64,000 bases of DNA from a virus (lineage: Duplodnaviria > Caudoviricetes), in the IMG/VR virus record IMGVR_UViG_2899275550_000002, positions 1,930 through 65,929 of that record. The stretch is one strand, 5' to 3'. The translations under genes and the position numbers were made by a program. Below, piece by piece: positions 27,681 through 27,736 of this stretch (position 1 is its first letter; every line of letters starts with the position of its first letter). The notes under the pieces are model-generated. The model had not been told where the DNA came from and searched no databases. It saw only the letters and a list, made by a program, of their open reading frames with translations.

Positions 27681-27736
27681 GCACAGGATGTGTCGCGAAG
27701 TCGCAAACCCAACGGTCTGTGACAGGAGCCACATCC
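27681..27736 (+). promoter_or_regulatory. Capsid leader RNA switch (AGGAU hairpin with alternative stem by the start codon)
   Basis: GCAC-AGGAT-GTGT hairpin; GGATGTG (27686-27692) is also complementary to CACATCC (27730-27736). Confidence 0.75.

Follow-up and report, generated by a model that had tools for sequence, protein, structure and literature searches.

In the whole stretch of phage DNA analyzed here (64,000 nt, hereafter the window), we identified four leaders that carry the same short hairpin motif, and in each of them one arm of the motif is also complementary to the start region of the gene behind it. The likeliest explanation, to which we give a probability of roughly 50%, is that each of the four sites is a copy of the same conserved, cis-acting leader RNA, and that a CsrA-type protein encoded by the phage opens their start regions. 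The motif, CAYAGGAYRTG, which the first-pass annotation had read as CAY-AGGAY-RTG in four intergenic leaders, has four exact matches in the window, at 27682, 40715, 53991 and 60079, all of them on the + strand, intergenic and within leaders. The chance expectation, derived from dinucleotide-preserving shuffles, was 0.13, and four matches were reached in 0 of 100 shuffles. No exact copy lies inside a coding sequence of the window, and when one mismatch was allowed, the extra matches in the window were background inside coding sequence only.

The start codons downstream of the four motifs are at 27737, 40758, 54034 and 60122, so that the distance from the end of the motif to the ATG is 33 nt in three leaders and 45 nt in the first, and the first copy begins 8 nt past the TGA stop of a 76-aa ORF (27443–27673); the coordinates thus bear out the spacings that had been reported. 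The gene behind the first leader codes for the major capsid protein (Pfam Phage_capsid_3, E 3e-58), and the second leader precedes a giant gene for a 4394-aa DarB-like polyvalent protein with N6_Mtase, LPD3 and LPD39 domains. The third leader belongs to a 79-aa gene, the first after the giant ORF, which opens a run of genes without family hits, and the fourth to a 126-aa protein, the first of a lysis module that includes an endolysin gene (61279–62019). Of the labels originally given to these genes, capsid, DarB-like and lysis module stand, but the "tail module" label of the third has no family support; neither the genes after the giant ORF nor the CsrA-like protein had a match in PHROGs. The portal protein of this phage is of the P22 type, and a scaffold-like gene (26246–27388) is followed by the CsrA-like gene and then by the capsid gene. 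Between the tail-side genes and the lysis module there is an AT-rich stretch (59400–59900) with a 207-aa ORF on the − strand (59332–59955), which had no PHROG match and looks like an acquired accessory gene.

Each leader can adopt two competing folds. In the capsid leader, the local hairpin GCAC-AGGAU-GUGU (27681–27693, + strand), whose core pairs are kept in relatives, would represent the "ON" form. The start region (27724–27739, + strand) consists of the Shine-Dalgarno sequence AGGAG, the anti-motif CACAUCC (27730–27736) and the ATG at 27737, and the complementarity is GGATGTG/CACATCC. The polyvalent-gene leader (40693–40763, + strand) has the hairpin CAU-AGGAC-AUG (40715–40725), the Shine-Dalgarno sequence GGAG (40747–40750) and the anti-motif CCCAUGUCC (40755–40763), which includes the AUG; here the complementary pair is GGACATGGG/CCCATGTCC, again with the ATG included, and a 9-bp clamp takes in the start codon. 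The leader of the 79-aa gene (53967–54036, + strand) contains the hairpin CAC-AGGAC-GUG (53991–54001), which can be extended by CUCG/CGAG, and the anti-motif CACGUCC (54027–54033) directly before the ATG at 54034 (GGACGTG/CACGTCC). The lysis-module leader (60061–60124, + strand) contains the hairpin GCAC-AGGAC-GUGC (60078–60090) and the anti-motif GGCACGUC (60112–60119) ahead of the ATG at 60122 (GACGTGCC/GGCACGTC). The proposed complementarity of the GGAYRTG arm to the start region was therefore present in 4/4 leaders, and it is used in the predicted minimum-free-energy fold of all four, in which the GGA and the 3' arm of the motif pair with a ..UCC sequence at the AUG; in the case of the capsid gene, positions −1 to −3 are the partners of the GGA. 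The folds of the four leaders had z-scores of −2.1 to −5.8 against shuffled sequences, and the competing local hairpin is only 3–4 bp. Capsid leaders alone carry a second hairpin, GUCGCA...UGUGAC (27700–27723, + strand), which is part of the minimum-free-energy fold and explains the 12 extra nt of spacing. It is kept in the capsid leaders of the window and of five related prophages (G531, G459, G409, G461 and G481).

We calculated the energy needed to open the ribosome-binding region. For the capsid gene, it decreased from 16.1 to 10.2 kcal/mol once the motif was withheld from pairing. The mean was 16.5 kcal/mol for the motif leaders versus 10.8 kcal/mol for other genes of the window, among which those with a good Shine-Dalgarno sequence after an intergenic gap had values of 3.7–9.8 kcal/mol. 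The start region of the CsrA-like gene was the most open of 25 tested in the window (3.7 kcal/mol). A covariance model seeded with 30 leaders from the window phage and its relatives scored the four window sites at 27–33 bits, and the next best match in the window had 15.8 bits. The three next best matches of this model in the host genome (3.96 Mb) scored 20–23 bits, lay within coding sequence and were rejected as chance. The whole window had no match in Rfam 15 at the gathering score, and a search of two leaders at E values up to 10 gave chance-level matches only (9–14 bits).

An extended −10-like box was found 20–28 nt upstream of the loop in all four window leaders. The putative capsid promoter has the box TGTTAAAAG in the 3' end of the CsrA-like gene (27654–27662). 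The corresponding boxes are TGTCATAAC (40693–40701) in the polyvalent-gene leader, where it occupies the loop of a GC-rich hairpin, TGTTAGATT (53967–53975) in the leader of the 79-aa gene, and TGGTATGAT (60061–60069) inside the palindrome CTGGTATGATACCAG in the lysis leader, all on the + strand. Within the set of 33 leaders described below, a TGNTA box was present 20–28 nt upstream of the loop in 23, compared with 2.3% of random windows; giant-gene leaders have TG(N)CATAA where others have TGNTA, and relatives from beta- and gammaproteobacterial hosts have a full TTGCAA-17-GATAAT promoter at the position of the box. A scan with the standard sigma-70 consensus did not pick up the promoter-like boxes, and no recognisable −35 element was seen in the window. 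Judged from sequence only, the four boxes suggest four separate late promoters. The motifs had been placed in "late-operon" leaders; since a promoter-like box precedes each of them, they probably belong to separate transcripts and not to leaders within one late operon. Because the hairpin lies 20–28 nt downstream of the −10-like box, it is probably located at the 5' end of its own transcript, where it would start approximately 6–10 nt from the end.

The fixed distance from the −10-like box and the short inverted repeat could also be explained by an element acting at the DNA level, i.e., an operator, a promoter-proximal site of a late transcription factor, or a pause or antitermination site. 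We consider this very improbable, as it leaves unexplained the strict strand specificity, the asymmetric conserved loop and the G-U pairs in the stem, as well as the covariation with start-codon sequence located 25–45 nt away.

Several additional structures were observed around the boxes. The GC-rich hairpin of the giant-gene leader whose loop holds the −10-like box (CCCCGCCC...GGGCGGGG, 40683–40712) is not an obvious terminator because it has no U-tract, and a GC-rich hairpin around the box recurs before the giant gene in G531, G459 and G481. The palindrome that encloses the box of the lysis leader (60060–60074) is perfect and could be an operator or, if transcribed, an RNA hairpin. The sequence TTAGATTGC occurs twice, at 53969–53978, where it corresponds to the −10-like box of the 53991 leader, and at 59991–60000. 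The second copy lies 87 nt before the lysis hairpin and is not followed by a hairpin at the usual spacing.

A search of whole genomes with the capsid protein revealed 11 further prophages in the family and genus of the host, with 45–89% capsid identity. Altogether, 33 stem-AGGAN-stem leaders were identified in nine Paracoccaceae prophages (the window counted), 3–5 per prophage, and they are situated before the capsid gene, the giant gene, the gene after the giant and others. Thirty of these were found by a descriptor scan and the other three by the covariance model, which had not been trained on them and scored them at 27–30 bits; a covariance model across related prophages was one of the checks that the first-pass annotation had suggested. 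The hairpin retains its three core pairs in 30/30 leaders, five of which have A-U to G-C double changes, in agreement with the stem covariation noticed earlier among the four window sites. Generic scans, either for any stem-AGGAN-stem or for GGA plus its complement, were dropped as tests due to heavy background in coding regions.

The pairing with the start region was also conserved. In the minimum-free-energy fold of 27 of 30 leaders, the GGA was paired with AUG positions −6 to +9, and when the motif was withheld from pairing, the mean opening energy of the start region decreased from 18.2 to 11.1 kcal/mol in these 30 leaders (mean drop 7.0). RNAalifold recovered just the 3-bp local hairpin from the leader alignment, missing the long-range helix because its register differs between leaders; we therefore examined the long-range pairing by position-specific and permutation tests. 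In 23 of 33 leaders, the nucleotide that follows GGA can form a Watson-Crick pair with the one that precedes UCC (C-G in 12, A-U in 7 and U-A in 4), a number reached by 0 of 100,000 permutations, and one phage (G206) has all three types of pair among its own leaders. The compensatory changes first noted in the window thus extend to its relatives. Motifs also paired better with their own start regions than with those of other leaders (−16.3 vs −13.3 kcal/mol; 0/20,000 permutations). Some leaders pair via the 5' arm (CAUAGGA/UCCUAUG), with CAU against the start codon itself, and the core common to all long-range pairings is GGA:UCC. A metagenomic near-relative has a leader identical to that of the window, and its CsrA-like protein is only 84% identical. 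In G461, approximately 1.1 kb of AT-rich DNA is inserted between the CsrA-like gene and the capsid leader (C7:34935-36207; L054, L066/L067), and the leader retains both the hairpin and the promoter-like box despite this insert.

We then extended the analysis to IMG/VR, where a scan with a capsid profile detected at least 566 relatives, of which 80 loci were kept. The hairpin element was present in 66/66 non-redundant capsid leaders, 31–62 nt before the ATG. The two mutually exclusive pairings proposed for the window are conserved and covary in relatives. Fifty of the 66 leaders were scored by a strict pentaloop/hexaloop rule, and the remaining 16, which are AGGA tetraloop or AGGAG variants, were identified by inspection. 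The strictly scored loops were AGGAN in 30 leaders, AUGAY in 12, AAGAY in 5 and AUGGAW in 3. The GGA loop, which had been likened to the classic CsrA site, is found in 33/33 leaders of the Paracoccaceae clade, but GGA is not invariant in the wider phage group, where AUGA and AAGA loops are present. The start region changes with the loop: AGGAC is accompanied by GUCC, AUGAC by GUCAUG and AAGAU by AUCU. In 43 of the 50 leaders the loop is paired with the start region in the minimum-free-energy fold, and own start regions again gave lower energies than those of other leaders (−16.1 vs −12.5 kcal/mol; 0/20,000 permutations).

Judged by the capsid protein, the nearest cultured relatives are Bcep22-like podophages, including Burkholderia phage JC1, Erwinia phage PEp14, Ralstonia phage Gervaise, Agrobacterium phage Atu_ph08 and Klebsiella phage SopranoGao. 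The capsid leaders of JC1 and PEp14 carry the hairpin. The JC1 hairpin is GGCGC-AGGAG-GUGCC, and its arm is complementary to GGCAUCUC ahead of the AUG. Each of the two AUGAC copies of PEp14 and the four GCGC-AUGA-GUGC copies of Atu_ph08 is located in a leader. One sub-lineage (L018:8920-8990 in G241, L021 in G390, L126, L135 and L146) has the canonical CsrA hexaloop, GGGC-AUGGAW-GUCC, with an anti-Shine-Dalgarno sequence, UCCUC, directly 3' of the hairpin. The proteins of this sub-lineage retain the equivalent of Arg44, and in the stretches examined the hairpin was found on the capsid leader only.

The 76-aa ORF upstream of the capsid leader (27443–27673, + strand) is, by profile comparison, a CsrA-family homolog, as had been suspected from its translation. 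It matched Pfam CsrA (PF02599) with 22 bits (E 1.6e-4), which is under the 27-bit cut-off. A profile built from this protein and 18 relatives matched nine solved CsrA/RsmE chains with E values of 5e-9 to 4e-5 over residues 1–47, and with 36.8 and 28.9 bits, respectively, its JC1 and Gervaise orthologs exceed the Pfam cut-off. An AlphaFold2 monomer model, with a mean pLDDT of only 57.7, has strands at residues 10–14, 21–25, 28–32, 40–44 and 52–54 and a helix at 60–72; in this low-confidence model the order of five strands and a C-terminal helix is as in CsrA. No CsrA-like sequence other than the phage gene was detected in the host genome (100% complete), and each of five congeners has exactly one CsrA-like gene, adjoining the capsid gene. 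In IMG/VR, 74 of 80 loci have a CsrA-like gene, detected with an iterated profile, at most 1.5 kb before the capsid gene; among the other six, two are ends of contigs, and in one the gene is found at a different place in the genome. Five complete IMG/VR phages initially appeared to have hairpins and no CsrA-like gene. This observation was discarded, as a narrow profile of the Paracoccus clade had missed a gene that both the Pfam model and the iterated profile find.

L4 and R44 are the most critical residues in canonical CsrA-RNA binding. The window protein has Phe in place of R44 (APPEMSITF) and Arg in place of L4; these positions vary in relatives (M, H, K, A, R), and Lessievirus-type orthologs keep both. 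Proteins with Arg at the R44 position accompany 17 GGA loops and one non-GGA loop (L097, a parsing error), and those without it accompany 15 GGA and 13 non-GGA loops. This confinement of non-GGA loops to proteins lacking Arg at that position is suggestive and agrees with a loop that is contacted directly by the protein, the counts coming from related sequences and ignoring phylogeny. On the other hand, the replacements in the window protein count against our preferred explanation, as do the AUGA and AAGA loops of the wider family, which canonical CsrA is not expected to bind. Synteny within one phage lineage could also yield the co-occurrence of gene and hairpin without any interaction, and the confidence of the protein model is low (pLDDT 58).

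An alternative is that the leader does not depend on the CsrA-like protein. It may serve as a constitutive clamp, setting the rate of translation or stabilizing the mRNA through pairing of its 5' end, or it could be opened by ribosomes that terminate just upstream, by another factor or by folding kinetics, with the protein acting elsewhere, e.g., on host mRNAs, or as a virion component. Loop identity tracks the start region and no obvious protein feature, and closely related CsrA-like proteins in the wider family accompany different loops; with the non-GGA loops, this means that RNA-RNA pairing, rather than recognition by a protein, may be what selection keeps. The lack of conservation of key CsrA residues points in the same direction, as does the detection of the JC1 protein in virions, by a single peptide in a proteomics study, together with the view of the gene as a moron in published work. 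In several phages the CsrA-like stop codon is no more than 8 nt from the hairpin or even inside it, so that a terminating ribosome would melt the hairpin. For example, in G531 the UAG stop is part of the motif CAUAGGAU (L057:16054-16064), and a ribosome terminating there would sit on the capsid-leader hairpin. However, no ORF ends shortly upstream of three of the four window leaders, and the gene that precedes the lysis leader is encoded on the other strand. A simple clamp would have no need of the hairpin itself, which is conserved with double changes in its stem, and the CsrA-site loop shape is kept, with gene and hairpin found together in 74/80 loci and non-GGA loops confined to proteins that have lost the Arg44 equivalent. 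Thus, we regard a protein-independent leader as possible but doubtful.

In the mechanism that we favor, with a CsrA-type protein as the opener, each leader would form the 5' end of a separately promoted late transcript, for the capsid protein, the DarB-like protein, the next gene and the lysis module, respectively. In the free RNA, the GGA(N) loop and one arm of the hairpin would pair with ..UCC at the start codon (OFF), often with an inner helix that covers the Shine-Dalgarno sequence as well, and this fold would close the ribosome-binding site. The alternative fold would be a weak hairpin of 3–5 bp that shows an A-GGA-N loop, the textbook shape of a CsrA site. The CsrA-family protein of the phage, made from a gene with an open ribosome-binding site directly upstream of the capsid leader and the sole CsrA homolog in the cell, would capture the nascent hairpin, prevent the clamp and thereby license late translation (ON). 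What the sequences show is the motif, the two pairings with their covariation, conservation in hundreds of phages, the relationship of the protein to CsrA, and the joint presence of gene and RNA; we infer binding by the protein, activation as the direction of its effect, the transcription starts and a role in timing.

Activation is favored because the RNA is predicted to be closed by default, yet capsid protein is needed in bulk; with a clamp in 66/66 capsid leaders, something must open it. It is further favored because the selected complementarity between the CsrA site and the start region forms the core of a switch and has no role in repression, and because CsrA is known to activate ymdA in a similar way (PMC7492729). 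Alternatively, the CsrA-like protein might be a repressor, a dimer of which bridges the upstream GGA hairpin and the GGA of the Shine-Dalgarno sequence and shuts late translation, e.g., as feedback or in the lysogen. Repression is the outcome at most known CsrA targets, and the Shine-Dalgarno sequences of the window leaders mostly contain GGA, 24–38 nt downstream of the hairpin, which is within the known CsrA bridging range of 10–63 nt and fits classical two-site repression, a point against activation. However, AGGAG is merely the usual ribosome-binding sequence, and the RNA closes its own start region without any protein. The complementarity of GGA to the start region would be purposeless in a repression model and would even compete with the repressor, and very large amounts of capsid protein are required from leaders all of which have the clamp. 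We therefore consider repression unlikely.

The CsrA consensus obtained by SELEX is RUACARGGAUGU, with short stems (PMC7652899, PMC7492729), and the capsid site of the window reads GCACAGGAUGUGU, with a GGA loop and flanks resembling the ACA..GU of CsrA sites. With the bacterial CsrA/RsmA/RsmE proteins (e.g., RsmE bound to hcnA, PDB 2jpp), the phage system shares a protein that is homologous at the profile level (E 5e-9) and an RNA site, a hairpin of 3–5 bp with an A-GGA-N loop, that matches ACAGGAUGU. It differs in that the protein is phage-encoded in a host without CsrA and its predicted targets are the phage's own late leaders. In addition, a pentaloop takes the place of the hexaloop, the window clade does not retain the equivalents of L4 and R44, no antagonist sRNA was seen for the phage set, and the predicted outcome is activation. 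CsrA activates ymdA of E. coli by opening a hairpin that sequesters the Shine-Dalgarno sequence (PMC7492729), and in ymdA and Yersinia hmsE (PMC10294631), as here, a CsrA-type site lies within a structure hiding the ribosome-binding site, so that binding would open it. In contrast to these cases, the predicted phage design is found on 3–5 leaders per phage across hundreds of phages, and the GGA itself pairs with UCC at the AUG. Another parallel is Com of phage Mu, which activates mom translation (PMC6483171), also a small phage RNA-binding protein proposed to open a late mRNA structure that sequesters the start codon; Com, however, is a zinc-finger protein with a single target, whereas the protein discussed here belongs to the CsrA family and has several predicted targets, including capsid and lysis genes.

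The same gene has been described as the "CsrA moron" of Bcep22-like podophages (Lessievirus JC1 gp47, DC1, CSP3 orf23; PEp14 gp9; Gervaise gp09), where it is also located between scaffold-like and capsid genes, in genomes that likewise have a P22-type portal and a DarB-like giant protein. The papers on JC1, CSP3, PEp14 and Gervaise annotate it as a CsrA-like regulator or a "moron", that is, as an accessory gene of unknown role which possibly acts on the host, and do not describe leader hairpins. Phage CsrA genes have also been listed in surveys, which point out the absence of CsrA from Burkholderia hosts and propose host manipulation or anti-CRISPR effects. Our literature search found no description of the leader RNA element or of RNA targets of a phage CsrA within the phage itself. 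The earlier remark that no description was known appears to hold for the RNA element and its regulon, but not for the gene, which had already been annotated in JC1, PEp14, Gervaise and CSP3. While the protein family and the principle of activation are known, the conserved RNA element and a multi-leader set owned by a phage appear to be undescribed.

If this reading is correct, it would provide a function for the "CsrA moron" left unexplained in the papers on Bcep22-like phages, some of which are candidates for phage therapy, and would extend the control of late genes in tailed phages by a post-transcriptional layer. To our knowledge, few examples of such control are known in tailed phages, e.g., Mu Com and T4 RegA. 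The system would also be a compact natural protein-RNA switch with many variants and built-in compensatory changes, useful for studies of the evolution of CsrA specificity and for synthetic translational switches. More tentatively, we propose that a lineage of podophages (Bcep22/Lessievirus-like phages and their prophage relatives in alpha-, beta- and gammaproteobacteria, many of them in hosts without CsrA) may have turned a CsrA-derived protein into a private translational activator. Such a protein would recognize a hairpin with an A-N-G-A-N loop at the 5' end of separately promoted late mRNAs, keep the loop off the start codon, and license the synthesis of capsid, injected polyvalent and lysis proteins. 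Protein and RNA would have co-evolved, with non-GGA loops arising only in those phages that lost the Arg44 contact.

The CsrA-like gene has a leader of its own (27389–27442), which contains a GC-rich hairpin directly after the stop codon of the scaffold gene. Two GGA motifs (AGGGAC and CGGACG) lie within 13 nt of its ATG, and the covariance model scored this leader at only 8 bits. These GGA motifs could be a site of autoregulation.
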